A stretch of 64,000 nt of DNA from a virus (IMGVR_UViG_2893967813_000002:12653-76652), one strand, 5' to 3'. Shown: positions 17,423 through 57,566, counted from the stretch's first letter. The notes: generated by a model not told the origin, from the sequence alone. Numbers and translations: made by a program.

Positions 17423-17763
17423 ATCTTCTGCTTTTTATCGTTAAAATACTGTTTTCTAATATTCTCTGCCTTATCAATTTCTTTTGATGGGGTCTTCTGC
17501 GTTTTCTTTATAAAGCCGTGAGTGGCAATTACCAAAGTGTCCTCTTCTGTATCCCAAAATGCCAAAAGCCGATAACAGATGCCATTGTAAAGCGTTCTGA
17601 ACTCCCAAATATCCGTACCTTCCAATTTCTTAAAAAGTTCTTTGTCTATGACAACTCTACTTTTGAAGATATTATAAGCGATTTTATCTTGTACCTTCTC
17701 CGGCAAAGAATGGATAAATTCATAAGCTTCTTCTGTATAAACTATTTTGAATCTCGTTTCCAT
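17419..17763 (-). CDS. higB: HigB/RelE-family (Gp49-like) toxin
   Basis: KKLEGTDIWEFR...YRLLAF...THGFIKKTQKTP; toxin-first gene order. Confidence 0.85.
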   Translation of the reverse strand: METRFKIVYTEEAYEFIHSLPEKVQDKIAYNIFKSRVVIDKELFKKLEGTDIWEFRTLYNGICYRLLAFWDTEEDTLVIATHGFIKKTQKTPSKEIDKAENIRKQYFNDKKQKI

Positions 17764-17784
17764 TATTAACTTGATTTCCTTTTG

Positions 17785-17818
17785 CAAAGGTAATAAACAG
17801 TTTACATATAAAGAAACT
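17785..17818 (-). promoter_or_regulatory. higBA promoter (-7 TACCTTTG) with candidate operator AGTTT-N10-AAACT
   Basis: CAAAGGTA 17785-17792; inverted repeat 17799-17818; no late-promoter motif. Confidence 0.55.
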
Positions 17819-17876
17819 TTTCGCTGTCTTTTTACATGAATGATTTATAATCGACTCGCTTCGCGAGAATAAAGAA

Positions 17877-17905
17877 AGAGGGAGCAGCCTTACGGCTCTC
17901 CCTCT
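17877..17905 (-). terminator. GC-rich hairpin with GTAA loop after the target gene (terminator and/or DGR target-recognition hairpin)
   Basis: Minus strand AGAGGGAGAGCC-GTAA-GGCTGCTCCCTCT followed by TTCTTTATT. Confidence 0.7.
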
Positions 17906-17935
17906 GACGTTTTTTACGAACTCACGAGTTCCGCT

Positions 17936-33077: not shown

Positions 33078-33542
33078 CTAAGCATGGGCTAATTTGATTC
33101 TTTTCTCGTTGCCTCTTGACCAAATGTCATCTTCGCTTTGTCCATATGTCGCAAGCTGTTCTATTTCTTTCTTTTGTTGTTCCTGCCAAGGCTCAAACTC
33201 TATAATATCTCTCATAAGCCATGAATCCCACCGTCCTCTGAAACAGATACCCCGGTCATCAAGGTACACATCGGCTATGATTTTTCCGCTTGTATGTTCC
33301 GGTTGATTCGGGTTTTCGTTTATATGGTCGTATGAAATATTGTTTTCTGCCAACCACTTTTCCAATTTTTCAGTTTTCTTGCGTGTCGTGAAGATGATGA
33401 TAGTCCATCCGTTTTTCTTTAGGGTGGCTGTACCTGTATCTGCGTTCGGTATCATCTGCCCAAACACATCCTCGCCTTGCCAACCTTTACTGTAGTCATG
33501 AATGACACCGTCAAAGTCTATACAAATAGTTTTCTGTTCCAT
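33078..33542 (-). CDS. HAD-superfamily phosphatase-like protein
   Basis: ICIDFDGVI (DxD), IIFTTR, KIIADVYLDDR. Confidence 0.78.
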   Translation of the reverse strand: MEQKTICIDFDGVIHDYSKGWQGEDVFGQMIPNADTGTATLKKNGWTIIIFTTRKKTEKLEKWLAENNISYDHINENPNQPEHTSGKIIADVYLDDRGICFRGRWDSWLMRDIIEFEPWQEQQKKEIEQLATYGQSEDDIWSRGNEKRIKLAHA

Positions 33543-33560: not shown

Positions 33561-35537
33561 TTATTGCCTTATTGCATTATTCAGTTTGTTCACGGCCTGC
33601 ATGTTCGCACCTTGTTGCGCTTGCGCCATCAGTTCGGGAGAAAGACCGTCAGGCATTTTACCCTGTTCCAATTGCTCTTTCTGCGACTTGATGCTCTGTA
33701 ATAGTTCATCGGCAAACGGGAAGTCGCCATGTTCAAGTAGTTGTTCCACGCTGATAGCTTGTGCTTGCCACAACTGCATGAGTATGTCGTTGGCAAGATG
33801 CCTGTATGCAGGGGTAGTTGTACTTTCTGTGATGCTCAAGTCAAACTCCACGTCTCGTATCTTTTTCGGGTCGTATTCAATTTGCGCACCGCTCCGTCCG
33901 GCAATGTTGAACACGCGCTTACTGTCATAGAACTGCTGTATATTTTTTACATCCTTGTATGCACCATCTACCACAAAACCGCTGAAACATTCCAACAGGT
34001 CAAGCAAAGTGGTAGTGGCATTCTGCGTCTGTTGTTGGAAATGGGCGGCACTTTCACCCGAAAACCCAGGCTTGCCTTGTAATGCTCCTGTTACACCTGA
34101 AATGTCTTCAAAGAACTTCAATTGAATATTCAGCAGTTCAGCAATGCCGATGTTGGTCGAATTGTTGGCCACTTGTTCCGGCACACGTCCGCTCTTGCTC
34201 GGTCTATAGACAATCACACCGTTGAACTCAGCCCAGCTTTCCGCAATGTCGTCAATGCTCACTCCGTCCGGCAGACAATCATCGGGCATCATCAGTACCC
34301 CTTTGGCACTCGCACGCATTATCCAGTCATAGAGGGTTATCAGTCGGTTGGTATATCGTTGTTGGTCGATGACATCGGCCACGAACGAATGGATTTCACC
34401 GTCAATGAACGGATAAGCCTTGAATACGTATGGGTGGCTGTCATGTTCGTATGGCGTTTCTCCCTCTTTCAGAATATCTCCGAATGGCGACAGATAGTAG
34501 AAATACCAATAGTCGTCAATAAACCACGTGGCTTTAACGAGCGGTACTTCTTCTTCGGGCATACCGACTGACTTTGCCATTTCGATGCGTTCATCATTGA
34601 CGGCGACCACACACTTTTGGTAATCCTCCACGTCAATCTTGAAGATGTCCCCGTTTTGGTAGTCATGGCACCGGTATCTTGGCTTTTGCTCCTTGCGCCA
34701 CACCTCGATAACTCTGCATCGTCCCGGCTCACTCGTAAACAGAAAATCGTAGTTTTCCAAACGACTGTAGCCGAAACGCTCTGCATACGAGGCGATGTAT
34801 TCTTTCTTTGCCGCCCACTTGTAGATGTCCCTAAGTCTGCGGTAATCTTCGGGTGAAGAGGCAAACTGTTCGCAAAGCTGTCCGAATGAAATGTCGTGTA
34901 TCTCGCCAAGAACCGACACATCCCACCCTCGAAAATCTCTCATATTATTATCTATGAAGAAATTGTTTGGCTGTACATAGTCCGTCCAACAATCTTCTTT
35001 TCCGTTACGCCAACCGTATGATTTGCGATGTACAATGAATCCGCTGATAAGAAACTCCTCCATTGTCCGGGCATATACCTCCGTCATCCGGTTCAGTTGC
35101 ATATTGCATTGCAGAATTGTACTCATCGTTTCGCCCAATTTCTGCTCGTCTCGGTCACGTGCTGTACAGGTCGGTTCTTTGCTCTGGCTTCGATACACGC
35201 CGAGTACGCTTTTTACCAATCTGCGGATAAGGTTGTTCTTCAATGGCACATTGCCCTGCCTTTTGATATACTCTTCTTCCGTCATGGTCTCACCGTCCAC
35301 ACATATTTTGTCATCCCACTGAAAACCGTAGGTATATCGCTTGTTGCGCTCTCTGTCCTTTCGGAAATCCTCCATCTGATTCCAATAGTGCTGTGCCTCC
35401 ATCAATATATCAAACGCCCTGCGGTCGCCCGACTGCCGTGAAGACATTACTACGGTATCCATTTCCTCCGTATCACGTTTGGGTGCGACACGGCTCATGA
35501 ACAGCAGTCTTTTATTTCCATTTTTTGTATTATGCAT
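33561..35537 (-). CDS. Portal protein (P22 gp1/SU10-like)
   Basis: 658 aa; NNLIRRLVKSVLG, VIDQQRYTN, ISGVTGALQG...SA, FDLSI. Confidence 0.82.
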   Translation of the reverse strand: MHNTKNGNKRLLFMSRVAPKRDTEEMDTVVMSSRQSGDRRAFDILMEAQHYWNQMEDFRKDRERNKRYTYGFQWDDKICVDGETMTEEEYIKRQGNVPLKNNLIRRLVKSVLGVYRSQSKEPTCTARDRDEQKLGETMSTILQCNMQLNRMTEVYARTMEEFLISGFIVHRKSYGWRNGKEDCWTDYVQPNNFFIDNNMRDFRGWDVSVLGEIHDISFGQLCEQFASSPEDYRRLRDIYKWAAKKEYIASYAERFGYSRLENYDFLFTSEPGRCRVIEVWRKEQKPRYRCHDYQNGDIFKIDVEDYQKCVVAVNDERIEMAKSVGMPEEEVPLVKATWFIDDYWYFYYLSPFGDILKEGETPYEHDSHPYVFKAYPFIDGEIHSFVADVIDQQRYTNRLITLYDWIMRASAKGVLMMPDDCLPDGVSIDDIAESWAEFNGVIVYRPSKSGRVPEQVANNSTNIGIAELLNIQLKFFEDISGVTGALQGKPGFSGESAAHFQQQTQNATTTLLDLLECFSGFVVDGAYKDVKNIQQFYDSKRVFNIAGRSGAQIEYDPKKIRDVEFDLSITESTTTPAYRHLANDILMQLWQAQAISVEQLLEHGDFPFADELLQSIKSQKEQLEQGKMPDGLSPELMAQAQQGANMQAVNKLNNAIRQ

Positions 35538-35573: not shown

Positions 35574-35617
35574 CAAAGGTACTATCCAAAGCATTCCTTT
35601 CAAGTATAACTATTTAC
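35574..35617 (-). promoter_or_regulatory. Putative late promoter GTAAATAGTTAT-N24-TACCTTTG for portal
   Basis: ATAACTATTTAC 35606-35617 and CAAAGGTA 35574-35581. Confidence 0.65.
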
Positions 35618-38600
35618 GTTTACGGGTGAGGTTTATTTCATCTATCATTTCTTTTTTGACTTCGTTCAACTCGGCTTCGATGTCCTTGCGTTCCTCGTCA
35701 CTGATTGCTTCTTTCAATTCATTGTAGAGGTCGTCAATGTCTTCACGATAATCCTCGAAAATTTCGTAACGCTCGTATTCGGGTGAGTTGTAGAGGAAAT
35801 CAATTTTTTCCGCATAGTCAAATATGCCGTTGTCGGTATCTTCCTCATAGTGCTTCAACCGGGATTTCAATCGGTCATGTTCCTCTTTCAACCGGAAATA
35901 CTCATTGTTCACAGCCCTGTATTCGGTTCGTTCGTCCCCGGCTTTCACAAGTCGGTTTACCAACAGGATGCTGCGAGGGTCATACTCTCGGTCTCCTGCA
36001 ATGGTTTCTGCAGTCTTGCTCAACTTGTCGATTGTTCCGAACACACCTCCGAAATAACCGTTCAACATATATTCTATCTTTGCCGGGTTAAGGTCGATTG
36101 CTCCTTTTGTGTATGGGTCTCCGCCTGTTGCTTCGTTCATTACATTTGCAAGCCCAACAATGTATTTGTTGGCACTCTTGTATGCTTTTGTCCATTCGGG
36201 CATATCCTTATTCCAAGGTGTGTTCTTATACAAAGGCATACCTGTCCAACTCTTTTCCGCTACGTAGGCTTCCCACAAAGGTTTGTAGGCACTCGGCACA
36301 AAGGCGTTCAGTCCTCCACCGCCCTCCAAGAAATCAATCGGCAATATCTGTGTCGCCTGTCCTGCAATGGATTCTGCTATTTCTCCGCCTGTAAGATGTT
36401 CCTTCCCGTTAAGCAGAAATCATCAGTTCTCCCATACCGTAAACAGCCCTGTATTCTACCGGAAGAGGAATGGATACCCAACTATTTCCTGCCCTGAAAA
36501 GAATATTGCTGCGCCTTACATATTCGGGAAGATTGTAGTATGCGTTCTTGTCATCATCGTCATCATCATCGCCACCTAAGTAGGCCACAATGGCACCAAG
36601 AAGGAATATCGCTGCAATACCTGTAAAAGCTTTGGCAGGGTGGCGTTTCATCTGCCGTCCGAAGTTTGCCGTACCTTGAATGGCGGCATTCCAAAAGACA
36701 TAGCCGCTACGACCAAGTCCCGATACCAATGCACTGGCATTACCAGTCTTTGTCTGCCCTGTACTGTCATAGAATTTTGCTCCGCTGCCTTTCTTGTTGA
36801 AGTTTACGCTTATCTCCTTTGCATCATAGATGGCTCTGTCTATGCTTCTGCCCATTTCACGTGATGTCATGAAAGCGGCAAAACGGGCGCTGTTCTCGAC
36901 TGCCCGGTTGTATTCATCAAAGCGTTCACCCAACAAGTCCCATGCTTTTTTTACAGGAATCTTGCCGTTCGATTTTTTCAGTTCCCTGCGTATGTCGTTT
37001 TTATGCTGTTCAATGTCCCGGATATTGGCATAGCCTGTTTCTCCTCCGTTCATCATGAACTGATGAAACATCGCTTCCGTCTTGTTACCCATGTCAAGTG
37101 TCCCTTTTCGGTGCTTTGCCAAAAGTTGCTTTATCCTTACAGGGTTGGCATACATATAATTTCGATGAAAACGCAGTGCGTAGTTCGGGCTTTCCCTTAT
37201 CCAAGTCATGGTGTTGGTGTATAGCATATCTCGCATGAAGTTCGATACGATGAAGTCCGGGTTGCGTGTGGTATAGAACGCACTCAACTGTCGGTTGATG
37301 TTTTCTCCGGCACGGAGAATAGCCCCGATTGCTCCCGACATATCGTTATCGGGATTTGTCTGTCCGTTCAATGCCTGTGCCGCACGAGGATTGCCGTTTA
37401 TGGTAATCACATAATCCCTGCCGCCACGTTTCACTACAATTTGGTGCTGCCTCATATCCCGGCTTTCCACAATACGATAAGGAATATTCACGGTATCCTT
37501 GCCGTGCTTGTACCGGTCAGGATATTGCTGCGCCAATGACTCCATTTTAGTTTCAAAGTCCAGCATCTTCCGGTCCACCACTTCGGGAGTATCTGTACTG
37601 TCTATGTTGTCAGGAAACACTGGCTTCCATTCGTTGGCCACCGCATCGTATTCTACCCAAATGTCGCTCACACTGGCAAGGTCGCTCGGATGGTTGAGGG
37701 CGAAATTAAGGAAACGCTGTTTTACCAATTTGTTTCGGTTGCCCTGCATGATAGCACCTTCAGCCATTGATTGCAGATTGGCAAACGGGTCATCAGCTTT
37801 CGACCTACGTCCTTCCGCTTTCTTGATAGGAGCATTGAATGCACTTTGCTTGTGCGTCAGATATGCGTATGCTTCAGAGCTGGTCTTTTCGTCAAAACCT
37901 CGTAACGGAATGTAAAAATCATACATACCTGAAATCTTGTCAAATGTCGATTTGCTCATCATGCCACATTCGTATGACTTTGAAAGTATTGCTTTGCTCA
38001 CTGCATTGACTTTTTCCCAAAGGTCGGCAGTGTCGTGTGCCTGTTCGTAATCATCAATCATCAGCTGCGCTTCCGCTTCTGCATCAGCGACATTATCCAT
38101 ACCTGTAAGGGCTGTAAGTCCGGCATAGTCGGTTTGGTCTGCATTGGTTGCCCCATTATTGATTGCTTCATTACGCATATATGTATTGCGTTCAAGTCCG
38201 TGTTTCGCCATCATGTAATCGGTCAATTCCTCACGCTCTGCCTCAGTCCGGGCGAGTTTGGCAACTTCATCAAGCATTGGCTTGAACAGGGTGTGGGCAA
38301 AGGCATCTGCTTCGGCTTTGTTCACACTTGACAGACGGTTTTCTCCCAAGTATGCGTTTTCAAATCCGTCCACATCCTCAATGTTTGTTTCCTTGCCAAG
38401 GATTGCAGTCATGGCTTCTTTCAAGCCGAGCATACTGTCCTGTAATGCTTCCTGTGATTGGAACATGCCGCTTTTCACACGCCTTTCATAACGGTCACGG
38501 GCCAACTCCCTTTCATGTCTTTCCGGGTCGCCGTCACGGTACAGGGCATCATCGTTTTCGGCAACTGTCTGACGATGTGGGTCGGCAACCGCATAATTGC

Positions 38601-41600
38601 CTACTTTCAGTTCATACTGCTTTGCCACATCGGAGGCTTCTCCCAATATGCTTCTATATCTGCCCGGCTCTGCAAGGTTCTCGTAGCTTCGCCACAAGAT
38701 GTAGCGAAGTTCGTTATCCGATAGAGTAACCCCTCTGAAATCTTCAAAGCCTATCTTATGGAGCATATTCAGGAAGAAATCCTTTATCTGCCGCCACCAA
38801 CCTGCATTGATATTTTCAAATTCGGTATCTTCGGCAAGCGAAGCCAGATATTCTTCGGTAGCCTTACGGAAATCCCAACCGTTTTTTGCAGCCATATCTA
38901 CAATGCGTCTGCGAATGCTTTCTTCTGCATTGTTGAATACATTATCGAGGAATGTATCAAAATGTTCGCCGAACAACTGGCGCAAACCATAATGCGCCAC
39001 AGCCTCATGCAGCAGTGTCTGTTCTACATCAAACGTACTTGTATGGTTGGGAATGACAATGGTTATCTTCCCTGTACTCTTCGAGTAGAAGCCTTTTGCA
39101 CGCTGTTTCTTGCCCTCCAAAGTGCTTGCATCAGTAACGACCTCAACATTGTCAAGATGCAGCTTCTTTGCAAATTTCTCGACACGTTCAGCCATTCTCC
39201 TACGCTCACGCTCGGCAAACTCTCTGCGCTGTTTTCTCGTTCCTCTCGGTTTGCCAAGAGCCTTTGAAACAGGGTCGCTCTCCATTGCCAACTCATCATC
39301 AGTATATGTTCCTACACCATCACGATAGTCGTTGGCAATCTCTGCATTGAGAGCGTTAATCTGCTCGTCTGTAATAGCACCGTCCTGTCTGCGTTGAGGC
39401 TCACGACCTGCTGCCTTTACCAATTTGTCCACTTCCGTAGGAGTGAGCAGACGGTTTACACGCATTGCGCCTGTGATTATCCACGGGTCTGTCTCGGGGT
39501 TTGGATTGGTACGATAGGTATATGCACCATTTTCCGGCACTCTCGCAAACCTGCATAGCTATGTTGGAACTTGCCATTCTGATTGTAGCCATAACTCATA
39601 GCCTCCTCTTGGTAGTCCACATCGTTAGCATATTCTACCTCTGCCCATACAAAGTTTGCAGGGAACAATGTGCGCTCGCCGTTCTCATCATTGCGGTTGA
39701 ACTGCAAAGCGTATGGAATTTCACCCAAGTGCCAACCGGGGCGATAGGCAAGTTTGCCACTTCCGCCCTGTGTACCTTTGCCGCCGGCCTTAACCTGTGA
39801 ACGTCCTGTCTTGCTCTGTCCTGCAATAGGAGCTGCATCTGCATCAAGCCATACGCCAACAGGTGTAGCCTCGCCATTAGGGTTGGCTACCATTGGTGGA
39901 TAAAGTTCGCCGTTCTTCAACACGAATACCTTGTAACCGATACCTGTGTTGATTGGTGCTGCTTCCTCACGGATACGATACATAGTATCATCACTGCGAT
40001 ACAAAGTGTCGTCATCCTCATCGGTCTTTTCAAGATTATCAGCAGCCTCAACAGAAGCATCCATTTCTGCGTACTTGGCTTCTTTTTCCTCCAACTCTTT
40101 CTTCATCTTCTCGGCATAGTCATCGTATTGCTCACGAGCCTGTGCCAATTCTGCCTCATACTCAAAAGGCTTGCCCTCTCTTGACAACAACTGCTCCAAC
40201 TCTGCTTCGTTGTGTTTCTTGTTGCGGTGTGCCGCCTCTAAACGCTCAGCAAAGTCTCTGCCTGTAATCACGTTCTTGGTAATATCCTCAATCGCATTAC
40301 GAAGCAGGTTTTGACGTACAGGAATATCCTCTATGCCAAGTTCCGGGCAAGAGTAGTGCATTTTGCGCTCTACATCATTGAACAGGGTCGCACCGTCACG
40401 AACAGTCTGCCTTGTCAATTTGGTGGTAACAACAAATGAGAAGTCGCCAATCTTTATAGTCAGCTCTCGTTTCTGCTCGCCTGCAATCTCGCCGTCTTTC
40501 ATCTGCTTCATTTCGGCAAGGACACTCTTGTTGTGTTCCTTGAAGAAATCTTCCATTGCCTCAACAGAAGCAAAACGATGTTTGCCAATGATGATTTCGG
40601 TAAACTTGCCATCGGGGAATGCTGATTGTACGGCTTCCAAATATCGGCTATTATCCTCTATTCGTTTCTCGGCATCCTTGATAAAGGCTTTAATCCTCGG
40701 CTTCGCATTGTGGATATAGGTTTGGTCTGCCTCCCATTGCTTTTTACGGCTTGCATACTTGCGGACATTCTTTTCTGCATTGTTTTTCAACATTGCATAC
40801 TCGCTGCCGGAGAGCTGCGCCACGGTATCGCCGAACACATCTTCTTCCTCCTCAAGCACACGATTTGTCATACTGTTCGCCATCATCTGCTTGCCGTTCA
40901 TAATGCTGTCAGCAATAGCACCCTTTGTTTTCAGTCGTTGGTATGCTGTAACGTCCAAGCTATCCTCAACACCGAAACGCAACACACGAACAGGCTTGCC
41001 CATTGCTTTATGCAGGTTGCCCTGTCGCAAGATACGTCCATTGCGCTGTGTGTAGTCCATTGGGCGGTTAGGTGCGTCCAAGTGTATCAATGTGTGCAGA
41101 CGCTCCTGTATGTTCACACCTGTACCAAGAGTAAAGGTAGAGCCAAGTATCACACGAACTTCACCACGGTTTACCTTCTCGAAGATTTCAAGTTTCTTCT
41201 TGACGGTCATTCCCGACTTCATTACAACAATCTCATCGGCAGGAACACCCTCGGCAATCAGTTTGGCACGAATATCCTCATACAGATTGAAACCACTCTC
41301 TTTGTTCTGATAGTTATCAGCAAAGATGGCAACTGTTCCCTTGTAGTCGGCAGTTTCTTTCAGTGAACGCAGTGTTTGCCTTACCGCCTCATTGGTCTTG
41401 CTGTGTGCATCGTCCTCTGCATCGGATTGTACCAAGCGAGCATCAACGGCTGCGGCTTTGGCAATACCATACATAGTGAGTGGAATATGGCTGTTCTCTT
41501 TCTTCTCCTTGCCGCTCATCTTGTCGTATTCTTCAAGTTGAGCCTTGACGAACTTCATAATGCTACGCAAAGCACGTGTCTGTGGCAGGTAGAGGTCTTG

Positions 41601-44600
41601 CGCCTTGCTTTCTTCCATCTCGGGTATCTTATCGCTTACGCCTCCTGCTTCCCTTGTGAGAACGGTATCAGATACGCCCGACCATATACGCACCAACTCG
41701 GGGAGGTTTACATAACCTGCAAAGCGGTTGTTCTCCTTGAACTTTCCGCTTGTGGTGAACTCCAACATCTGCTGAATGTTTCCGAAGTTGCGTACAAAAT
41801 CATCGAAATAGTAGATACCGTATTCCTCCATAGTGTCGGCAGGCATCAGATAGCGCATAAACGTCCATATCTCGGCTGCTGTGTTGCTTATAGGTGTACC
41901 TGTGGCGAAGATTACGTTTCGTCCGTTGTTCTTCTCCAATACAGCCTGTGTCTTCAAGTACACGCCTTGCGACTTCTTGCTGTATGACGGGTCCACACCC
42001 TTAACACCACGCTGCATAGCGGTGGCAAATCCGAGGTGCTTGTATTCGTGTGCCTCATCAATGAGCAGGGCATCAATACCCATATCATCGAAGTTCTCGA
42101 CATCATCAGTCCTGCGGTCGAGCATTTCCATTGCCTTGACTTCTGCGTTCTGCAATGCAACAGCACGTTTCTTCTCATCTGCGGCAGTACGTTTCTTTGC
42201 ACTCTCATCACTCAACCCTGCAAGTTGTTCCTCCAACAGTTCGATTTCTCTTTCAGCCTGTCGGGTAATCATACTCTTGCCGTTAGGGTCTGCCTCTTTC
42301 ATCTTCTCAAGCACAAGCATTTTCTCCTCAATCTTCGACTGAACGAATGCCATTTGTCGCTCCTCGCTGTCTGGGATAAACTCAAATGTAGATTGAGGCA
42401 CTACAATCATATCCCAATCATTGTAGCGTATCTTGGCATAGAAGTTCTTTCTTCCCTCTGCGCTGCGGTCTGCTTCTTCGAGGGTCAAAATCTTTGCATT
42501 GGGGTAGAGTTCCTTTGCACTTGCAACAAACTGTCCTACGGTGGCATTCTGCACCACAATCATAGGTTTGCGTGCAGTACCCAAGCGGCGCATCTCCATT
42601 GCAGTTGATATAAGAGTGAATGTCTTACCTGTACCAACCTCGTGAGCAAGCAACAACGGCTGCATCGTTCCCCTTACAATGGCTCTGCCTTGATGTGGGC
42701 GCATCTTGAACTTGTGCGATGCACCGCCGAAGTATTCCGGCACAAAGTCATCGGGTATGCTCATAGGCACATAGTTGTTGAACGTGTCGTTATAGATACG
42801 CTCCATACGCTCGCTCATTTCCGCATCACTCTGCATCTTCTGCCTTGCCCACTCCTTGAAGTCCTGACGTATCTCGTCAATCTTGGCAGCACAAGCCTGT
42901 GTCGCCTCCTTGTCGGTAATGGTCTCGGTAGAACCGTCCCAATTCTTCTTAACGGTAGAAACGGTGATGCTTCTGTTCTGAATGGCTGCTTCAATAAGGG
43001 TGTGTCCCATAACGGTACGACCGAGCATTTCGCTTGTAACGCCCATAGCACGGTTCTTCTCGTAGTTGGTAAAATATGGTTCATTCATAAACCAAGTACC
43101 GCCTACGGCTGTGAATTGCACGCCTACCTCGGTGCGCTCTTTCACATATTCCTCGTACATCTTCGGCTCTATCCAAGAACTACCCAGAGTGAAGTCAATC
43201 AAGTGGGCAGGAATATCCATAGGAACAACCTCCTGCAATGCCTTGATATTGCTGTCATACTCGCCGTTCTCGTTGTTCTCCTGTGCTTGGCGCAGTTTCT
43301 CACGCACATTGCCGCTCAAATACTGATAAGAAACCTCTATCTGTCGGGTAGTAGGGTCTTCAAATCCGTAACCGCTCTCGATGATTTCTTTCTTAACGGC
43401 TTCCTCGCTCTGTCCGAGCTGCTCTGCAATGTATGGAACATCAACACGACCGAACTTGAAGATACTTGCGATGATACCGTCCTTTACATTGGTTGGGGTC
43501 GGCTCTTTCTCTTTCTCGACAACACGTTTGCTGAATACATCGGTCTTGCCGAACTTCTGTACCTTGTTGCCCTTTGCATCGGCTGTTTCTTCAAACTTTT
43601 CAAGAGCAAACACGTTGGCATAGTCCACATCGTTGCGGAGGAACGCAATAGCGGTGTTCTTGTTGAAATGTCCGTAAGTGGCTACAAAATCATCATAAGC
43701 CTTGTTGAGTTTGGCAAGCAAAGGCTTCAAACCCTTGTCATCATCATTGTTGGTTTGGTAATCGAGAACTTCTGCAAGTGCTTCCTTGATGGCGGTGTAT
43801 GCCTCAAAGCATTCAACCTTTGTGTGTCCCTTTACCTTGTTGGCATTCACTTCGAGGGGCTGTGCAGCACCGATGGCGTTGATATACAACTTTCCGTCAC
43901 TAATGAACACCTCACCAATCTTCTTGCCGGGTATTGCATCAATAACCTCAATCTCATCAGTAGCCTTGTCGCCAAATTCCTCTGCGGTGAACGACTGAAC
44001 GAACTCTGCCAACATCTGCTCCTGCTTCTTATCCTGTTTAGGATACAAGCCCTTGCTTGTCGGACGGAATGTGTCGCCCTTTTCAAAGGCGAAGTGCATT
44101 TCACCTGCCATATTCTCGGGGTGTTCAATGAAATACTGATTGTAGTCCATTGAAAGCTGCTTCACAACAGGAACAATTTGCCCATTTTTCTTGCGTGTTT
44201 CGCCTGTGTTGTACTCTGCCATACGCTCACCCGAAACGTTGCTTACATCAATAGCGTGGGCAGACTTCTTGCCGTTCACACGCTTGCGAATGACAATGAT
44301 GTCCGAGGTTACACCTGTACCGCCGAAAGTCTTGTTGTGCATACGGAACGCACCAACAAAGTCTGCGCCTCCCTCATTCACAATCCAATCACGTAGTTTC
44401 TTGCTACTGTCAAGCGTACCATTGGACGTGATGAAGATACCCAAACCACCCTCACGCAGTTTGCGCACATTCTTCGCTATACAGAAATCGTGTATGTTGT
44501 GGAATTTCTTTGACAGGTCTTTGTCGCCTGTGGTATCGTTCACACGCAAACCTGTTACAAACGGAACATTGGTAATAGCCAAGTCCACGCTACCATTGGC

Positions 44601-47600
44601 AATGCGTGTCTGCTCAAAACCCTGTATCTCCACCTTTGCATCGGGATACAAGAGAGAGAGAATGCCGCCCGATGTACCGTCAATCTCAATGGCGTGAATA
44701 TCGCTTTGCTCGCTGATGTGAGTAGGCATCTGTCCCAAGATGTTACCGATACCTGCCGAGCCTTCAAGAATGTTGCCGCCCTTGAAGCCCATTTGCTCTG
44801 CAATATCCCAAAGAGTATCTACAACGTATGCAGGGGTGTAATATGCACTATTGGCACTCATCACCGCCTCCTGGTATGCAGCCTCTCCAAGCAATTCACG
44901 AAGTCGCTTTGCGATATTGTTGGGGGCGTAGTATGTTCCCTCGCTGAAAACCTTACCTAAACCGCCCCAACCGCTGAACTTGCGGAGGGTCTGCATCTGC
45001 TTCTTGGTAGCCTGTTCGCCGCTCTCAATGAGTTGCTGCGCCAACTCGATAGCCTTTATATTAGCTTCGATACGTGCATCTACGGAAGTAGGGGCGTGGT
45101 CTTTGCCTCGCTCTGAATGGTTGTTGCGAGTGTTCTTTGGCTCGGTTACGGTGTCTGAAAGTCGAGGTCGCACAGTCCTATCGACTGCATCGCCTGTTCT
45201 TTTTCCTCCGAGGTCAGTTCCTCGACTGTCTTGTTGATTGTTTTCGCTACTTGTTTCAGTGCCTCTTGATAATCCTTGCTCGTGTCGATTACCGTTGGCT
45301 GACACTCCTTCGGAGCGTTCTGCATCAGTTCTCTGTAATCCATTTTCGTTGTTCGTTTCGTTATCAAATAAGCTGTCAAACAAACCCAACTCGCTTGACT
45401 GCTGTGAATTTACTGCTTTTTTCTCGTTCTTTTTACGTGCAGGGCGGCTTTTTTTGATGCGTTCCTGTGCAATCTCTGCCTCTTGTTCCACCTCCGCCTC
45501 TCTCGTTACGGTTTCGGCAGTGGCAAGTGCATCAATGCTTGTCTTGCCGAAATTCGCCACGTCAAACTTCTGTACCTCATCGTATGGAGTCATGTCGGCA
45601 TCCAGTCCGTTTTCTGCCACCTCCGGCAAATCCCTCGCACCATTATAGAACGCTTTGAGGTATGGGCGTATGGCATCGCCCAAGTCTGCAATCATGGCTG
45701 TTGCATACTCGGCAAATTTGCGTGTGCCTTTCTCGATATGATAGACAGCCATTTCCGTACCGATGGCAAGTGTTTCCGGGTCTATTCCCATATTCATTTG
45801 ACCGAGCAACTTCTTGCGCATACGCTCACGGAGTTCTGCATAACGTTCATCGGTAACAAGACGATTGCCACTCGGATTATTTTCCGACTTAGATTCTTGC
45901 TCTGTGGCTTCCGCTTTTTCTGTACGTACAATCTCCCTAATCTTAACCTTGTTTCAAGAATGGTTTCAACAGCGTCACGCAGTTCCTGATTAAAATTCTT
46001 GGGATTACGTACAATCTCCAACATTTCTTCAGGACTGTTTGCAGTATAATTGAAACGTCCATCCCCGATAGGGATAGGTCCGCTCACATCATCACGCTTC
46101 AATGTGGTTAATCCCGTTTTCTTATCAACAGAAACAGAATATTGCCATACAGGGGTGTATTCCTGTCTTTCTTCCGGCTTTGATGTTTCCGAAAGTTGAG
46201 GTTCTGCAAACTGCACATTACCGTCATTGACAGCCTGCATATCAGACATTGAGACAGGCGGTTGTGATTGTGCATCAGTTGCATATTCTGCCAAGCGTTC
46301 AGCATCTTCCTTGCTCCGCATCATGAAGCCTTGCTTTTCCTTATCCCACCAGCCTTTCAGTTGTTTGGCAAACATTGTGGTGTGCTTCCGAACAGTATCT
46401 CTTAATTCATCATTAAACTTCACAAGGTGCATATCCAACACCTTACCTCTTTTGGTGGTGTATTGTGCCTGAGTAATGGTGTATGCAGCATCAGTCGGTG
46501 TTGTCGTTTCTTCATTGAAATTGTTTTGTTCCAATTTCCGCTGTTCAGTAAAGAGGTCGTTTATTTCGGAAATAATGCGGGCTTCCTCAAATATATCACT
46601 CTGACCATGTGCGGCTTCTTGTTCCTTGTGCAGTTCTTCAATGCGTGATTTGATTTCAGAAAGTCTGTTGACTTGTGTACTTGAACTCTGTTCCTCAACA
46701 CTTTTAACTGATTTGTATTCAGCAAACGCTTTAGTCTTACGGTGGCTACTATCTATCCACTTCTCGAAATCCTCTAAGTTGACACCGGTCACCACTGTCT
46801 TGTGTTTCTTCGCCCAGTCGTTGTCATAATTCGCAAAGTAAGCTGCTTCGGCATCGTCAGTCTCATTGAAACCAAGCATTACCTTATGCTCATCAAAGCT
46901 GCCGTCCTCATTATACTGGTCCACCACGAACACCCTGCGTCCGTTCCAAGCGTCAATATCATCAGAGAGGAACACGTCTATGTGGTCTCCATCCACGCCC
47001 TCCGTGCCACGAATGTAGCCGTAGGTGTTCTGCATGGTTGTTTCCCACTTATTGCCGTTGGCATCCACACCGCTGCGCACACTGCCTTTAGGTTGCTCGA
47101 TAGTAATATCGAACACCCCGACCTGCACATGACCTTTCTTATAATTTCCGGCTTCTTTCTGCGCTTCGGTCGGATTTACATCAACTTCCGCTTCTGCCGC
47201 TGCAATTTTTTCTCCTAACTCACTGCTTTTAACAGAATTATTTGTACCTTTGCTATCAGAAAGCATAGTGGTTTGAGGCGCATCCGTGCCCTCGGTAGCG
47301 AGGTCAGACACATTCCCTTGCGGCGAGTATAAGCCTTGTTCCATGTCTGAGGCATCAGAAACATTATCGGCGTGTTTCCAAACCATTTTTCCTTTAGTAA
47401 GGAGGTTCGCAATGGCGTTCCTCCTTTTTTCTTGGTTGGAAACAACTACCTCTTTACCGTCTTTGCTGACTGTGATTGAAGTGAAATAATAATACCGAGA
47501 ACCGTCAGCTTTTTTAAATGAACGTATGAATACATAGGAAGATGGACGTTCTGTAGTATCTCCCTCTTTGGCTTCACTAACATCTTCTATGATAGCATGA

Positions 47601-50600
47601 GGATGTTCAAGTGTAGGTTTAATCATACCCAATTTACCATTTCTGCCTTGTCGCATCAATTTTGTAAATTGGTTTTCACCCATTTTTACATTGCCTATCG
47701 GTGTTGTGACGATACCATCTTCACCGAATAGGGCATCCCAGTTTTCAATAGTGAGGTCTATTTCAGGAGCAATTTCAGCACTCAATTCCATATCTGCAAT
47801 GAAGTCTTGTGCTTCATCCGCAGTCATGGAACGGCCAATTACTTCCGTTGCATCATTTTCCTCTTCTTTATTTCCTCTATCTTCGCTCTCAACTCCGCTT
47901 CTTCCACCATCTCTTTCAATTCTTCCTCCACTGTCGGCTGTCCCATTTCCGTCCTCAACTCGTTCTCCTGCCGGAGCATCTCCCCAGCTTCCTTGCTGCC
48001 CTCGTTGGCCTGTTGCAGTATCGCCAACCAATACATTGCTTCGCTGTTGTCCATCGTAGATAATGTTTAATGTTTCGTAAATAGCCTGTGCAAGCGTCCG
48101 GGGAGTGTTGTCCGGCTGCTCGAACAGGGTTGCTTCCTGTGTGCCTTGAATAAGGTCATAGATTCTGTTAAATGTATTTTGGATAATGCCTTGGGTTTCT
48201 CCCTTGTACATCGTTGCCAAAAGCAATGCGAAGTTACTGAAATTATCGGCAGGGAGATAACTTTCGCCCGTTGCATCATCAATCTGGTATTGGTGTTTCC
48301 AACTTTCAACGGCTATCCGTGCCTCTTTGAAATTTTTCGCATCGGTAAATTGTTTGTCCTGCGACAAGGCATAATAAGCCCGGATTGAGTTCTGTATCTC
48401 CTCAACCATACGCTCTGCATTCGGACTGTCATAATCCCGGAATGCCGTTGCGAGAATAGCCTTTTGAGCCTTTACAGGCAACGCGTTGAACATTTCTTCA
48501 AGACGGACACTGCCACCCTTGAAAATGCTCTGATACATGATTCCACGCAAATCATTCTTGGCTTCGGCGGTCAGGTTACCCTTGCTGTCAAATGCGCTGC
48601 TGTATTGGGTCGGTGTGATGTAGCCTTTCTGCATCATCCATTTCAATACATTTGTACCGTTGGCATCCACGAGTCCTGCAAATGAAGTCTCCTCATCGCT
48701 CGAAGCAAGCAATAGGTTGGCGAACGAACGCATATCATTGCCCATCTTCTGCATGATGTTCTTGGGCTTTATACGTTCTATACCTCCGCTTTCTGTGTCC
48801 TGTGCGACAAACTGACCGAGATTGATAGCCTCGGTATCGTCCACTTCAAGCATATTAACGAGGACAGGACGTTCCACAGAATCAATATCCTCGGCACGCA
48901 ATCCAAATTCGTCTGCGTGGTCTTTCAGATACTGCTTGTACTGCTCTGCCTGGTCTTTGTGACCATACCACATCTGACGGAGTGCGTCACTTCGGTTGTT
49001 GCCCTGTATGACTTCCCCTCGTGCATTTATGGTAGGTGCGCCTGTATATGCAGTGACAGAAGATGTGATTTCTTCAGGACGAATGTTTCCGGCAATCTTT
49101 CGGGCAGACAATACGCTTGCTTCATCATTACGCTCCTTTGGCTGTGCCTCATCAATGAAGTGAAGCGGATTTCGCACACCTTGAACGTGACTCGGTTGCA
49201 ACAAGTTTGCATCAATCACGGATATACGACCGCCTACAATAGCATCATCACTGAATTTTACGGATACCTCCTTTCCCATCAATGCCTGTACAGGCTCTTG
49301 TCTGTCTATCTTATGACCGTTCATGCGTCTGTAACCTCTTGCCCGTGCATCCTGCGGCTTGTCGTCCACCATGTCCGGCACTCCGTTTAGGGCTTCACGC
49401 TCGATGCGTTCTACCTCCTCACGTTCGGCACGCAACTTTTCTTCTTCCGCCTTTCTCAATGCGGCTGCTTCATCGGCAATGCGTCTGCGTTCAGCATCCG
49501 CTTCCATTTTTCTGCGATTGGCGGTACCGGCTATCTTCTGCCAAACGAGCAATTCCTGTTTGGCCGCATCAATCGCCGCCTTGCGTTCTTTCTCGGAAGC
49601 AATTTTTTCGGCAATAGAATTACCGCCTTTCGATTTGGCTTTCTCCTGTTTCTTCAAGGCTTCTTCCTTGTCGGCAACCATTCCATCGGCTACAGTCTGT
49701 GCCATAGCCTCATCACCCTCGGTCTGTTCCACAATGGCATCCCAAGCTGTGTCGCTGTCGGCCTGCTCATATAATGGATTTCCCTGCTCATCCTTTGGTA
49801 TTCTCTGCATTGCAGGAATATTTTGATGGGCATTGTTATCATTTTCGGGAATATTTTCCGCACCATTGTTGCTCTCATTTTCGGCAGGATGTTCAAATGT
49901 CACTCCGTTATGCTCCAACAGCATATTGTCAAGTTCATCACGAGTGAACAGGTTCACACGCTTGCCGTTGATAGGAGCTTCGGTAAATACCTCATACTTG
50001 CCGTCCGCATCGGCATCTGCTGTGATATTGCCACGGACGGTAACACCGTTCTCATCGGTAAGCGAAACAATGTCATTGAGGGCGTATTGTGGTCTTTCAG
50101 CCTCTTGCATTTCCTGTTTCCGTTCGGTATTCTCAATGGTTCTCTGCTGCTCGAACTGCGCCACACGTGCCAAATTTGCCGCATCAGCCTGTTGCTGTAT
50201 GGTTTCTTTTGCCAACGGGAAGATATTCACGCCGTCACTCACGTTAACTGTGCCGTCCCCATTATCCACAATACCGTCTTCGTTGGCTACAATCTGAACC
50301 TGTATCTGTGCGTCATCTCCTGTAATGGTGTATGTATCGCCGGGGTTGAATGTAACCACACCGTCAATCTTGTCGGATGCTTCTTGTGCGAACTGTTGAA
50401 TGATAGCCTCCTCCGCTGTCATTTTCTCATCGGATGGGTTCAACGGTTCATCAATGTTCAATACGGCATCGGGCGACACCTGTTCGAGTGCGCCTGTTTC
50501 CGCATCACGGACAATGATGCTACCGTCCGAAGCCTGATTGTCAATGCTGCTGCCGTCTGCATATGGCACAAGGTTTCCACTCACGACATACACGCGGCGG

Positions 50601-53056
50601 TCGTCCTGTTTCATCGTTGCCCCCTGTATCATGCCATTGGTGCGGTTGGTACGTGCATCGACCATTGCATTGCTTTGCTCCACACGTGCATCTATGTCAT
50701 CACGCACACGTTGAATCATACCGTCATATACCTGCTTGGCATTTAGGTAGTCCAATATGATGTCTGCACGCTCATGTCCTTGTTCGTTGCCGCTGCTCGA
50801 TGCGTTCCGTGCCTCGTTCAGCCAGTCCACAGCATCATTCACAAGGGCTTCATCGTTCACTCCCAGCTCGCGTTTCATCCTCTCCCTCTGGTACTCGTAC
50901 ATATTCTTGGCATCGGTCATTTCCTGTGGGTCTGCGATATTGTAACCATCAATGTAGCTTTCATCCATTGACTGCACATCCTCGTCCTGTTCGCCGCCCC
51001 GTTTCTGTACGAGAGTACCGAGGTTAAAGCCCCTCATCATCAACGAACGCTCCATGTAGGTAAGGATTGCGGCTCTCTCATCGTCAGAGAAATTCTTGTC
51101 GTTTACAATTCCATCTGCCACGCTGCCAATGTCATCATTGGTCGTAAGGTCGATAGTCGTCCTTAACGGTTCCCATATTTCTTTGCCAAGCAATTCTGTT
51201 GCACGGGCATCAGCCTTGTTTACTCCGTGCTTCATTGAAGCATACTGCGCTCCTGACAATGTAGCCTTACCTGCGCCCATCAATCCCATAGAAAGAGCCA
51301 TGCCGCCCCAAATGTCGCCGTGGAATTGTCCTGTTGCAAGCAAGTTGGTGCGTGTGCCATCCGGGTTATGCTGGTACGCATCGTCCAGATTGAGCATGGT
51401 GCGCCACAATTGCCCATAGTATTCTTCCGTTACCTCTCCAAAATAGTCACTCACACCCATTTTGTTGAATAACTGATGTGTCTGTCCCATGATACCGTTC
51501 AACGCACCTGCATCAGCCTTTGAAAGCACTGCACCGATACGCTTTGCACCCACCACATTGGCGAGCTTACTCATATTTCCAAGAGTAACTACAGGGTCAA
51601 GGTGCGAACCGAACATTTCCGAATAATTTTCAACGATGGCATTGGCTTCTCCTTGCCAAATGGCATTTCCCCAAGTCTTGTCGTTGGAAAAATCATAGTT
51701 TCCGTTCTCATCGACAACCACATCACCGAGTTTTCTGTCAATAATGTCGGCTGTGGTTTTCCCTGCCTGTACCGTATTGGTCATAAGCGGAGCACGGAGA
51801 AGCAGGTCATCAGCGGTCGTACCGAGAGCCTTAATGGTCCAATTGGTTGCATATTGTCCCAAACCTTTCACGCCGTTGTTTTTCAGGTATGTCTTGAAGC
51901 CCTGTTCCGCCAGTTTCTCTACTACTTCTTTGCCCACCACCTTTGTGGCAGCTTTCGTTCCGGCTTTGGAAAGAACATTGATACCGTTGAATCCACCTCC
52001 TGTAATACCAAAGTCAAGCATGAATGCAGGCATATGGCCGGTCATCATACCGGCTCTGTTCCAAAAGCCAGCGTTCCCACCATACATCTGCTCCGCCTGT
52101 CCTTTGTTGTAGAGTGCGCCCATCATTTCATTGTAGGCTTCACGCTCTCCATCCGTGGCATTCTCACCTTTCAGGTCATCGGCGTTCATCATCGTCAAAG
52201 CGTCACGCATATCGCTCATGCCGAAATCCCAAGTGCGGAAATCGCCTGCCACACGACCGAAACCACGCCAAAAGCCTACATCTACACCTTGTTCACGGTC
52301 TTTCTGTTCTTCAAGGTCTTTGATAAGTTCCTCTGTTTGACGAATGGCGACATCCAAGGTACTGTTTTCCCTGTCGCTCATCTGACGAGGAACATAGGTA
52401 TCTGCTGCAAGCAAGAATCCAAGAGGAGCTGTATTCTTTTTTGTATCTTCTTCCCATTGTTCATGCACTCTATTGGCACTTGCATCTCGTTTTTCTTGCA
52501 GTTCTGCAAGTTTCAGCCTTGCACGGCGTAGTTGTCCGCTTACAGACATATCAGCCGCCTGTCGGTATCTGAAACTCTCCATGTCTGCAAGTCCCTTACT
52601 GGTGTATCTGTTGCCAAGAGGGGTAATGTAGGTTTTCTCCAACTTTCCGCTCTCTGGGTTGAACTGTATTTTCCCTTCTGCGGTCTGTCCTCCACCCAAT
52701 GGTGCATTTTCTTGGTACTCACGCATGGTCTCCATTTGTTCGCTGAAACCGTCCAACATTTGCTCCGTGCGGCGTTTCATTTGCCCCATATTTGCACTGA
52801 AGCGTATTTTGTCCTGTTCCGTCAGCGGCTTTTCTTTTGCTGTAGAGATTACAGGAGTTTCGGGTGTAGAGTCCGGGGCAGTCTGTTCAGGCTGTTGCTG
52901 TTCCGACATGAAAGTCTTGTAGTCTGCCGACTTTACACGATATTTCTTTCCCTCACGCTCCATGATTGTAGAAGCATCGGGAAAATCTTTCATAAAACTG
53001 TCAATGTGTTCATCACGCACATTGTATTTCTTTCCGTTGTATTCAAATATTGGCAT
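35610..53056 (-). CDS. Giant polyvalent DarB-like virion protein (~5,816 aa after repairing three frameshifts)
   Basis: ORFs 45794-53056, 39477-45821, 36409-39540 and 35610-36344 join near 45955, 39545 and 36412. Contains N6-MTase (EGSAGIG, NVPF), SNF2 helicase (HEVGTGKT, DEAH), iPPase-like and HExxH domains. Confidence 0.82.
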
Positions 53057-53058
53057 AG

Positions 53059-54200
53059 TTATTTGTTTTTACCGGGTGTATAATCAATCACATCGTCATC
53101 GCCGCCACCGGGAACATAGTCCACAACCTCATTATTCAGTTCTGAGGTCATGGCGGCAGGGTCAAGTTTGGAGAGAGAAAGCATGATTGCAGAGGCTTTC
53201 GGCGATTTGTGCCAATTCTGTTTCACAAAATCGTCTTTATCTCTTGCCGACATCTTGTTGATTTTATTCTTGTACCTTGTATCGCTCAGGTCTCCTTTTT
53301 CCACTCCATCCGTTATCATCGCATCAAACACTTGCTGCATCGACCTTTCCAAACATTCTCGTAAATGGCTACTTGGTTTCCGTCACCGTCAGAAAAACCG
53401 AGTTGTTTGCCACGGACACCACGTGCGGCTGTCGCTCTCGCTTTATCACGCTCTACAGCCACATTGTCATTATGCCTCTTTACTTGGAAATTGTAGGAAC
53501 GGTCAGCTTGACGTTTGTTTTCGTCAAATGTCGTTTGCCAACGCTTATCGGCTTCTTTATCTCGACCTTTCTTGTATTCTTGTTCTGCATCATATCGGTC
53601 ATCGGCGATTTTCTCCCGCTCGTTACGATGCTGAATGCTCTCATTGTATCGGTCATCATTCTTTTGGTCAAGACCGAGTTGCCTTTGCCAAGAACGTTCA
53701 CGGTGTGCTTCTTCTGCATCCGCCTGTTTCGCCCTAATCAAGCCATTGAAATATGCGTTGTTCTTTTCCTCTCGGTCTTTCATCAACTTGTCATATCGGA
53801 TTTTTGTACGCTCCGACATGGTGTTCTTGCCTGTGTACATGTTCGGTGCGCCCTGTGTCGTAAAAAAGAGATTGGAGAGAGCCATAACGCCATCCCCAAT
53901 TGCAGCAAAGATTTCATTTCTTCGCTGTTTCTTCTTTTCTTTTTCAATTTCCTCCGCTGTTGGTGGGGTATAAGGGTTAAGTTGCCGGAACAATGCTTCA
54001 TAGCCACCTCCACCTGCCGGAGTTCCTCCGTCTGTCGGCGGTGTGCCATTCTGCTTTGCCGGAGCCGGTGGTGCAGTCGGGGGAGAGGAAGCCGGTGCAT
54101 TATTCTCTGAATGTTGTTCCGTCCATTCCTTTGTGCCTTTTGGTGCATATCCTCCGTTACCTGAAGAAGTGCCACCCAATATCTCGTCTAATGTTGCCAT
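53059..54200 (-). CDS. Internal virion/ejection protein (inferred), frameshift near 53345
   Basis: 53316-54200 joins 53059-53352 as VWKG-SMQQVF with +1 T. Confidence 0.6.
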
Positions 54201-54211: not shown

Positions 54212-54691
54212 TTAGAAAGGCATGGATGAAGCGGCATTGGCGACACCTTGCACAGCCTGACCGATTGCCTGTGCTTTCCCTTGTTCAAGTTGGTTAAGCT
54301 GCTCCACGAAAGCATTGTCGTTCGCCATGTAGGTAGCCTCTATGTTGTCTTTCCGTGCCTCTGCATTGGCTGCAATCTGCGATGTCGCATCGGCGAGTGC
54401 CTGGTTGTTTGCCGCTTTTGCAGCCGCCACACTCTCATCCGTGCCGCCCATCACAGCCGCCGAACCTGCCGCCTGTTTGTTTCGCTGTTTGATACTCTCT
54501 TCGGTCTGTGTCAGAATACGCTGTGCATCGGCACGCTGGGTAGCGTCCTCATTATAGCGTCTGTCATACCAGTCTTGGTTTTTCTGCCGCTGCGCCTCTA
54601 CATTCTTCTTTGCCCTTTTCATTGCCTTTGATGCAGAGATACCGCCGAAGATACTGCCCGCTGCACCTATTGCACTTCCAATAAGTCCCAT
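54212..54691 (-). CDS. Internal virion/DNA-transfer pilot protein (inferred)
   Basis: Gly/Ala-rich N-terminus MGLIGSAIGAAGSIFGG followed by Ala/Gln coiled coil. Confidence 0.6.
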   Translation of the reverse strand: MGLIGSAIGAAGSIFGGISASKAMKRAKKNVEAQRQKNQDWYDRRYNEDATQRADAQRILTQTEESIKQRNKQAAGSAAVMGGTDESVAAAKAANNQALADATSQIAANAEARKDNIEATYMANDNAFVEQLNQLEQGKAQAIGQAVQGVANAASSMPF

Positions 54692-57263: not shown

Positions 57264-57302
57264 ATCATGTCATTTTTATAGTTAAACTTTCTGTTTTTCC
57301 AT

Positions 57303-57441
57303 TCCGTGTACCAATGAGCCTAATCCGTGTTCCAATAAAGTTCCGGCCGTTTATCCGCAACTCGCTGACTGTGCAGGAGAAACGTTTGTACAACATTGGT
57401 ACAACACCGTTGTCAAAACTGTCCAACTATTGTACAACATT
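57303..57441. repeat. Candidate integrase arm-type/regulatory repeats
   Basis: TCCGTGT(A/T)CCAAT at 57303 and 57324; GTACAAC-core repeats at 57386, 57397, 57419, 57430 in two 11-bp-period pairs. Confidence 0.65.
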
Positions 57442-57497
57442 TGCGTGCGTTCTGCTCAAAAAGCGTGCAAAATGCACGCAAATTTCCTCAAAAGCAA

Positions 57498-57535
57498 TAG
57501 GCGACAAGCCTTTATAAACAAGTACTTGCCGCCTA
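57498..57535 (-). terminator. Hairpin downstream of ppdK near the prophage boundary
   Basis: TAGGCGACAAG-N16-CTTGCCGCCTA. Confidence 0.6.
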
Positions 57536-57566
57536 ACTATCTGATAATTAGCTTTTATTTCGCTTG

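Follow-up and report, generated by a model that had tools for sequence, protein, structure and literature searches.

We analysed a window of 64,000 nucleotides taken from a viral contig of 76.7 kb that IMG/VR records as a provirus (IMGVR_UViG_2893967813_000002, positions 12653-76652; coordinates below count from the first base of the window unless the contig is named) and found that four consecutive open reading frames (ORFs) on its minus strand, between 35610 and 53056, are on comparison with their relatives a single gene of a temperate Bacteroides prophage, with a predicted multi-enzyme product of ~5,816 residues. Judged by its sequence, this giant protein belongs to a known and already annotated DarB-like kind of short-tailed phages. 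Taken as a whole, we consider it probable that the gene is intact and that it encodes a polyvalent protein that is packaged in the virion, ejected into the host and provides DarB-like protection.

As read from the assembled sequence, the four ORFs follow one another with slight overlaps or small gaps in frames 1, 2, 0 and 2 (first codon base modulo 3), as listed here together with the gene that they make up.

35610-53056, minus strand: giant DarB-like gene, collinear with the single ORFs BS-TP4 gp3, BKO1-TP3 gp55, L006 and P0124
45794-53056, minus strand: ORF 1
39477-45821, minus strand: ORF 2, open from 45953
36409-39540, minus strand: ORF 3, open from 39558
35610-36344, minus strand: ORF 4, open from 36419

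Adding one, one and two bases at the three breaks gives 17,451 nt, or 5,817 codons including the stop, which exactly reproduces the arithmetic of an earlier note made from this DNA alone. That note had joined the four ORFs into a single gene, and the joining is borne out both by single ORFs in relatives and by protein profiles that cross the junctions. The window prophage is collinear, in reverse orientation, with two isolated temperate Bacteroides phages, BS-TP4 and BKO1-TP3, in each of which the giant gene is annotated as one ORF with the portal gene directly after it (gp3 of BS-TP4, 5,391 residues, PQ571277; gp55 of BKO1-TP3, 5,553 residues, PQ571269, labelled 'DarB-like antirestriction'). 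When these two proteins were used as tblastn queries, the four window ORFs were matched in order. The same prophage is found beside the same host gene in a metagenomic scaffold (L006), where the giant gene is one ORF of 4,042 residues, and a protein of a representative library (P0124, 5,948 residues) is collinear with all four pieces and unbroken at junctions 2 and 3. The start at 53056 and the stop at 35610 are also those of the relatives' single ORFs. That giant relatives have already been deposited and annotated, and that a portal gene lies directly downstream, are points absent from the earlier note.

Profile searches give the same picture. Profiles phrog_10089 and phrog_14770 are collinear over all pieces of the giant gene, while phrog_30118 is split by break 2 (profile positions 6-129 in piece 2 and 131-182 in piece 3) and the Pfam family LPD38 is split by break 3 (piece 3 has positions 2-47 and piece 4 has 53-184). 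Once the frame is restored, the final 4.6 kb of the gene differs from L006 by 24 substitutions, 17 of which are synonymous and 7 non-synonymous.

The three breaks are each accounted for by one or two bases that are present in relatives.

45952-45954, minus strand: break 1, a run of three A that is four A in relatives, 1 base missing
39544, minus strand: break 2, C that is CC in a 99.7%-identical relative, 1 base missing, splitting phrog_30118
36412, minus strand: break 3, C that is CCC in a 99.7%-identical relative, 2 bases missing, splitting Pfam LPD38

At junction 1 the window reads GAAAC, whereas GAAAAC is read in 21 of the 21 IMG/VR contigs that share its exact 31-nt flanks, with the frame open in all of them; local alignment to BS-TP4 agrees with a missing A. 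At junction 2 the window has TTGC-GAGAG against TTGCCGAGAG in L006 (39544), and at junction 3 it has TCTGC--TTAAC against TCTGCCCTTAAC in L006 (36412). All three joins proposed between the ORFs are therefore right according to the relatives' sequence at each junction. Over 10.6 kb (window 40208-29611) L006 and the window are 99.70% identical, and the only indels in this stretch are three deletions in the window, namely CC>C at 39544, CCC>C at 36412 and AAA>AA at 31558, the last of which breaks the frame of the large terminase gene (phrog_2). Lesions of this type are also found elsewhere in the window. The gene upstream of the giant gene is frame-broken by GGG>GG at 53343, the endolysin is broken twice (~14175 and ~13824), and the host gene for pyruvate phosphate dikinase (PPDK), which is whole in L006 (908 residues), is broken at ~58223, just ahead of its conserved NPMLGHRG region. 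This brings the number of frame breaks in the 64 kb to eight, about one per 8 kb, all being deletions of 1-2 nt and none a nonsense mutation. Five of these eight, including the three of the giant gene, could be compared with a close relative, and all five are homopolymer contractions.

We regard it as very probable that the breaks are assembly errors in which homopolymers were under-called, because unrelated genes, including the host PPDK, bear the same lesions. Were the frameshifts real, the prophage would be decaying and the giant gene would be a pseudogene in four pieces. Damage to the terminase, the endolysin and the upstream structural gene is what a defective prophage would show, but the adjoining host PPDK gene is broken likewise, and the uniformity of the lesions (eight of eight being 1-2-nt deletions, with no nonsense mutation and with five contractions of homopolymers relative to close relatives) also argues against decay. 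In addition, synonymous changes predominate among the substitutions past the breaks when the frame is restored (17 versus 7), and L006 has an intact copy that is 99.7% identical to the giant gene, such that we think decay of the prophage very unlikely. The raw ORF pattern is all that speaks for programmed ribosomal frameshifting between the ORFs, or for four separate genes. Both were rejected and in our view have almost no chance of being correct, since relatives carry the same sequence in one frame, domains would be cut mid-fold and unrelated genes carry the same lesions; frameshifting would furthermore require shifts of -1, -1 and -2. The earlier note's call for sequence polishing is well founded given the homopolymer deletions relative to relatives, and with about one such deletion in every 8 kb, apparent split genes and pseudogenes in the record of this window should be distrusted.

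With the gene taken as a single intact frame, the domains of its predicted product are as follows, listed from the N- to the C-terminus.

49247-53056, minus strand: N-terminal region of ~1,270 residues, no recognisable family
48851-49246, minus strand: DdrB-like ParB domain (Pfam PF18763, 85.7 bits versus a cut-off of 27.6)
47375-47725, minus strand: PBECR2 (Barnase/EndoU/colicin E5-D/RelE-like), a predicted RNase (Pfam PF18810, 49.3 bits versus 27.1)
46754-47167, minus strand: polyvalent-type inorganic-pyrophosphatase-like domain (InPase; Pfam PF18823, 179.5 bits)
40212-45422, minus strand: methylase-helicase ('DarB-like') cassette of 1,737 residues (phrog_10089 'DarB-like antirestriction', 2,023 bits)
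44226-45101, minus strand: probable gamma-class N6-adenine methyltransferase (motif I LEGSAGIG, motif IV NVPF)
41019-42710, minus strand: SNF2-type SF2 helicase (Helicase_C 42.1 bits and SNF2-rel_dom 29.5 bits, both over their cut-offs)
39385-39938, minus strand: domain of unknown function (phrog_30118), interrupted by break 2
38554-39351, minus strand: zincin-like domain, in which HExxxH (HEAVAH, 38992-39009) and a TEEYL downstream of it are both invariant
36571-36630, minus strand: single hydrophobic, transmembrane-like helix (hydropathy scan), with a run of seven Asp after it
35973-36546, minus strand: C-terminal LPD38 (Pfam PF18857) in two collinear halves, interrupted by break 3

The ParB/DdrB, RelE/barnase-type (PBECR2), pyrophosphatase-like (InPase), SNF2 helicase and LPD38 domains, which had previously been named from motifs, all score over their Pfam cut-offs at these coordinates. 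The N-terminal ~1,270 residues, which have no Pfam, PHROG or PDB match, are 70-89% conserved in three close relatives; in the ESM Atlas they fall among viral clusters to which no family is assigned, LPD14 and LPD22 being no more than leads. The InPase domain has a match in 9b41_L, a phage portal of solved structure, where it corresponds to the C-terminal domain (E 3e-22). The helicase lies C-terminal to the methylase and contains a Walker A motif (GTGKT) and a DEAH motif. NCBIfam returned generic helicase matches only, far under their cut-offs, and a PDB sequence search returned helicase motifs only for piece 2 and nothing for piece 3. Downstream of these enzymes, the C-terminal module is made up of the HExxxH zincin-like domain, a long unassigned stretch, the hydrophobic helix and LPD38, in that order. 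We also considered a 503-residue antisense ORF within the cassette (42642-44153, plus strand) and rejected it as a gene, as its frame contains 4 stops in BKO1-TP3 and is only 56% identical there, versus 83-89% for the sense frame.

For the N6-adenine methyltransferase assigned in the earlier note, support comes from motifs and from a sub-threshold profile match. Motifs I and IV are accompanied by an acidic motif II, and the three align with the NPPF methylase of BS-TP4 (E 0.005). The best Pfam match, Eco57I, reaches 19.2 bits, under its cut-off of 25.3. A motif scan of the protein found neither the canonical [DNS]PP[YFW] nor HExxH, the actual motifs being NVPF and HExxxH. A single-sequence AlphaFold model of the region was too poor to use (pLDDT 34). 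We conclude that this region is probably an adenine methylase, but one of uncertain activity because its motif IV is non-canonical and no Pfam methylase model reaches its cut-off.

A similar result was obtained for the 'HExxH peptidase' that had been placed near 39000. An invariant zinc-type motif is indeed present in a domain with a weakly zincin-like model, but the motif is HExxxH rather than HExxH. In an alignment of this domain (A2) residues H115, E116, H120 and E166/E167 are invariant, the latter pair belonging to a TEEYL motif ~50 residues past HExxxH. Among 136 representatives the H, E and H of HExxxH are at least 95% conserved, down to 28% identity, and so are E166/E167; which residue would provide the third zinc ligand we infer from the sequence. 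An AF2 model built on the same alignment (pLDDT 76.8) places HExxxH on a long helix (106-141) that follows a small sheet. Structural comparison with VIA-align gave weak matches to ArdC (Z 5.7, root-mean-square deviation 5.0, 127 residues aligned), anthrax lethal factor (5.6), PprI (5.1), PPEP-2 (4.9) and MATCAP (4.8), and the best Foldseek match was also MATCAP (E 0.14). Nearly all of the top structural matches are zincins, each under the level that excludes chance. No Pfam peptidase model matches the domain, and a search of its profile against the PDB returned nothing meaningful. A combination of HExxxH and an EE motif is known from active gluzincin-type enzymes, the MATCAP/TMCP and M49 peptidases (PMC10499314). 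It is thus plausible, though not established, that the domain is a peptidase, because its motif is invariant and active MATCAP and M49 enzymes share the HExxxH and EE arrangement while the modeled fold matches weakly.

The part of these results that we think most worth attention is the swapping of internal cassettes. The difference between the giant genes of the window and of L006 consists almost wholly of the 1,737-residue methylase and SNF2 helicase insertion, the flanks of which are 74-99.6% identical to L006 at the protein level. This cassette is present in the window and in BKO1-TP3 and is absent from L006, and at the same place BS-TP4 has a different cassette composed of another methylase and a Strawberry-notch helicase. 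PBECR2 is present in the window and L006 and appears as a gap in the alignments to BS-TP4 and BKO1-TP3, while the phrog_30118 domain is found in L006 (99.6% identity) and is absent from BKO1-TP3. The cassettes seen are methylase-SNF2, methylase-Strawberry-notch, PBECR2 and phrog_30118. Proteins with C-terminal modules that are 92-95% identical carry different Pfam sets, and comparison of the giant protein with itself found no internal repeats that would account for the exchange. These observations are consistent with an exchange of internal enzyme cassettes between otherwise near-identical phages in an arms race against host defences, and such swapping fits the variability described for polyvalent proteins (PMC5512222). 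A more tentative suggestion, which we hold to be doubtful, is that the conserved ~1,270-residue N-terminus and the C-terminal module form a delivery chassis for freely recombining anti-defence cassettes and that the MATCAP-like peptidase cuts the chain into separate effectors after ejection. Such a protein, carried by gut phages that are otherwise 99% identical, would be the phage equivalent of polymorphic toxins.

The genes on either side of the giant gene bear on what its product may do.

54212-54691, minus strand: gene of the T7 gp14 internal virion protein family, 159 residues (Pfam PF24072, 27.4 bits versus 27)
53062-54200, minus strand: upstream gene of ~380-390 residues, no family found, frame-broken at ~53343 (GGG>GG)
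33561-35537, minus strand: portal gene, directly downstream (Pfam P22_portal, 134 bits; phrog_156 portal)

The giant gene is co-oriented with these within the head gene block of an integrase-bearing prophage, between the T7_gp14-family gene and the P22-type portal. The integrase (493 residues) is encoded at 55782-57263, and within 55782-58211 the prophage adjoins the 3' end of the host PPDK gene, an insertion site that is also used in the independent metagenome scaffold (L006 1-3054). The earlier note had described the two genes ahead of the giant gene as pilot-type, which is half supported because only the 159-residue gene reaches a family cut-off, and this match is borderline (profile positions 5-163 of 187, E 3.8e-6). 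Pfam and PHROG searches recognised no family in the second gene, for which the ESM Atlas gave a weak lead from its 381-residue protein to the P22 injectosome family (0.81).

We believe that packaging and ejection of the giant protein is most likely, because the homologues JC1 gp69 and phi24B gp47 have been found in virions. By analogy with these, a few copies would be packed in the capsid near the portal and would leave it along with the two small upstream proteins, either at the same time as the DNA or before it. After entry the methylase-helicase dyad would guard the incoming DNA from restriction, as DarB does, while the ParB, RNase and pyrophosphatase-like domains would act on host nucleic acids or nucleotide signals. 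Cleavage of the chain into individual effectors may be the task of the zincin-like domain. The gene could instead be intact and its product unpackaged, in which case the protein would be synthesised once infection or induction has taken place and would serve in the cytoplasm, either against host defences or in replication. A Pfam scan recognised neither a peptidoglycan-degrading domain nor a capsid-targeting signal, which would fit such a role. On the other hand the gene sits inside the head block, co-oriented between the T7_gp14-family gene and the portal, and mass spectrometry shows homologues with the same C-terminal module to be abundant virion components. The biology of P1 DarB further suggests that an anti-restriction enzyme made after entry would come too late, and the fusion of an InPase domain to a solved portal (9b41) was counted toward a virion location of the giant protein. 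Collectively we judge the unpackaged alternative unlikely, although less so than decay of the prophage.

Several points nevertheless weigh against our favoured reading of an intact gene whose product is packaged, ejected and protective. The T7_gp14 match is barely at threshold, and neither the 381-residue gene nor the pieces of the giant gene show homology to T7 gp15 or gp16 in Pfam or PHROG searches. Pfam likewise finds no lytic transglycosylase domain of the T7 gp16 or Bcep22 gp75 type in the giant-protein pieces. Within the enzymes, structural similarity to zincins is weak (every Z under 6, Foldseek E 0.14 or higher), and the methyltransferase has NVPF and not NPPF/Y as motif IV, with no Pfam methylase model at cut-off. 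The breaks were judged from the assembled sequence and its relatives, which formally leaves a small probability of real, very recent frameshifts. Packaging, ejection, processing and anti-restriction are drawn from homology, for the window protein as for its Bacteroides relatives, and the publication on BS-TP4 and BKO1-TP3 contains neither a discussion of the giant gene nor virion proteomics.

Some other features of the prophage were noted alongside this analysis. A 154-residue gene after the portal (33078-33542) has weak HAD-like Pfam matches and a match to phrog_1238 'phosphoheptose isomerase', which its L006 orthologue hits with E 3.5e-24, an unexpected enzyme for a head block. BS-TP4 gp7 (20340-22436, equivalent to window 30348-32437), annotated as 'tail spike protein', is the large terminase on the basis of phrog_2 (E 5e-19 for the L006 orthologue). 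A diversity-generating retroelement (DGR) occupies window 15392-25876, with a reverse transcriptase at 15392-16879 and a 2,646-residue ORF (17936-25876) whose C-terminal end is repeated at ~16979-17092, giving a variable and template repeat pair; its homologue in BS-TP4, gp14, has been named as a DGR target (PMC12694917). Between the DGR target and the template repeat, at 17123-17763, lie homologues of BS-TP4 gp15 (RelE toxin) and gp16 (XRE regulator). Outside the window, within contig bases 1-12652, genes for a MobA/VirD2-type relaxase and a NikA-like mobilisation protein (positions 1628-3709) lie past the left part of the prophage and may belong to a separate adjoining mobilisable element.

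The phage group is a frequent one in the human gut, and BS-TP4 was found in 31% of 930 Chinese metaviromes by the authors who isolated it. A quarter of the genome goes to a single protein, one that is unstudied in Bacteroides. The giant protein would weigh ~650 kDa. If it is packaged and injected, the question of how such a chain is stored in the capsid and threaded through a short tail is the same as that raised by phi24B gp47. The natural cassette variants, in which the dyad is present, lacking or different, provide a ready series for matching modules to host defences.

Among known systems, the experimental precedent is P1 DarB (2,255 residues, ~250 kDa), which has a methylase and SF2 helicase dyad like that of the window protein, whose methylase is a probable one, and is the only one for which anti-restriction (type I) and head packaging are experimental. 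The cassette matches it in tblastn with E 1e-13 over 27% of the cassette. As with the window gene, P1 darB lies directly upstream of the portal gene, and P1 DdrB is the namesake of the ParB domain type that the window protein also carries. P1 is however a myovirus that makes each of its Dar proteins as a polypeptide of its own, unlike the single chain of the window.

A single giant polypeptide is likewise found in Lessievirus-type podoviruses (Bcep22 gp75, JC1 gp69 and CSP3 orf43, 4,515-4,602 residues), where it also takes up >20% of a ~60-kb genome and where methylase, SNF2 helicase, C-terminal module and LPD38 are collinear with those of the window protein. Giant 'DarB-like' proteins of podoviruses that infect Burkholderia (Bcep22, BcepIL02, CSP3), Ralstonia, Erwinia (PEp14), Vibrio, Sinorhizobium and Klebsiella align with 98-99% of the methylase-helicase cassette at ~28-31% identity, tblastn coverage being 99% for Bcep22 gp75. 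In blastp against Bcep22 gp75, matches with E 9e-166, 2e-33 and 6e-5 occur in order along both proteins, among them ORF 2 residues 5-1936 with gp75 1315-3159 (E 9e-166) and ORF 3 residues 369-1049 with gp75 3712-4327, such that the two are collinear from gp75 residue ~1,315 to the C-terminal LPD38 (~4,460 of 4,602). Bcep22 gp75 comprises SLT, an Eco57I-like methylase that is also sub-threshold (23.9 bits), SNF2, LPD3 and LPD38. The two kinds differ in host phylum, are only ~23-27% identical, and have different N-termini: that of gp75 is an SLT transglycosylase, with LPD3 in addition, whereas no window piece contains SLT and the window protein has instead its orphan 1,270-residue N-terminus plus ParB, PBECR2 and InPase, being ~1,200 residues longer. 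Their gene positions also differ, with the window gene before the portal and the Bcep22-type gene at the end of the structural block. JC1 gp69 (4,515 residues, taking up 22% of the genome) ranked second in strength among the proteins of CsCl-purified virions, where 51 unique peptides of it were detected by mass spectrometry (PMC9144972).

A wider set of phages shares only the C-terminal end. The C-terminal 719 residues have counterparts in 335 phage records, those of Stx phages and of Ralstonia GP4 among them, and the alignment to the Stx and GP4 proteins covers 90-95% of that length at ~25% identity (E 1e-26 to 1e-32). The C-terminal LPD38 is shared with phi24B gp47 and the 933W-type 'LPD5 domain-containing protein' (2,811 residues) of Stx phages and with the GP4 protein. 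By Pfam phi24B gp47 contains LPD5, LPD1, LPD38 and a MuF-C peptidase; it lacks methylase-helicase, ParB and InPase and is half the size of the window protein. Mass spectrometry finds it in virions, the cryo-EM map does not contain it, and its proposed role is that of an ejection protein held inside the capsid (bioRxiv 10.64898/2026.04.10.717836).

The domain types themselves, namely the methylase-helicase dyad, DdrB-ParB, PBECR and InPase, were described for polyvalent proteins by Iyer, Burroughs, Anand, de Souza and Aravind in 2017 (PMC5512222). The window protein is of this polyvalent type, with several of the defining domains in one chain encoded beside virion genes, although this combination of domains and the Bacteroides phage clade are not discussed in that work. 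Closest of all are BS-TP4 gp3 and BKO1-TP3 gp55, which are the same gene at the same genome position, 70-95% identical in the shared parts; they differ from the window protein by their internal cassettes, and both are without PBECR2. Beyond these, a representative search with the 1,049-residue piece recovered 6,362 cluster representatives at E of 1e-3 or less, 1,485 of them at 1e-30 or less. Among the best 149 of the 6,362, 63 have at least 5,000 residues and 27 at least 5,800, the largest having 6,927. A length of 5,816 residues is therefore typical of this mostly metagenomic clade rather than exceptional.

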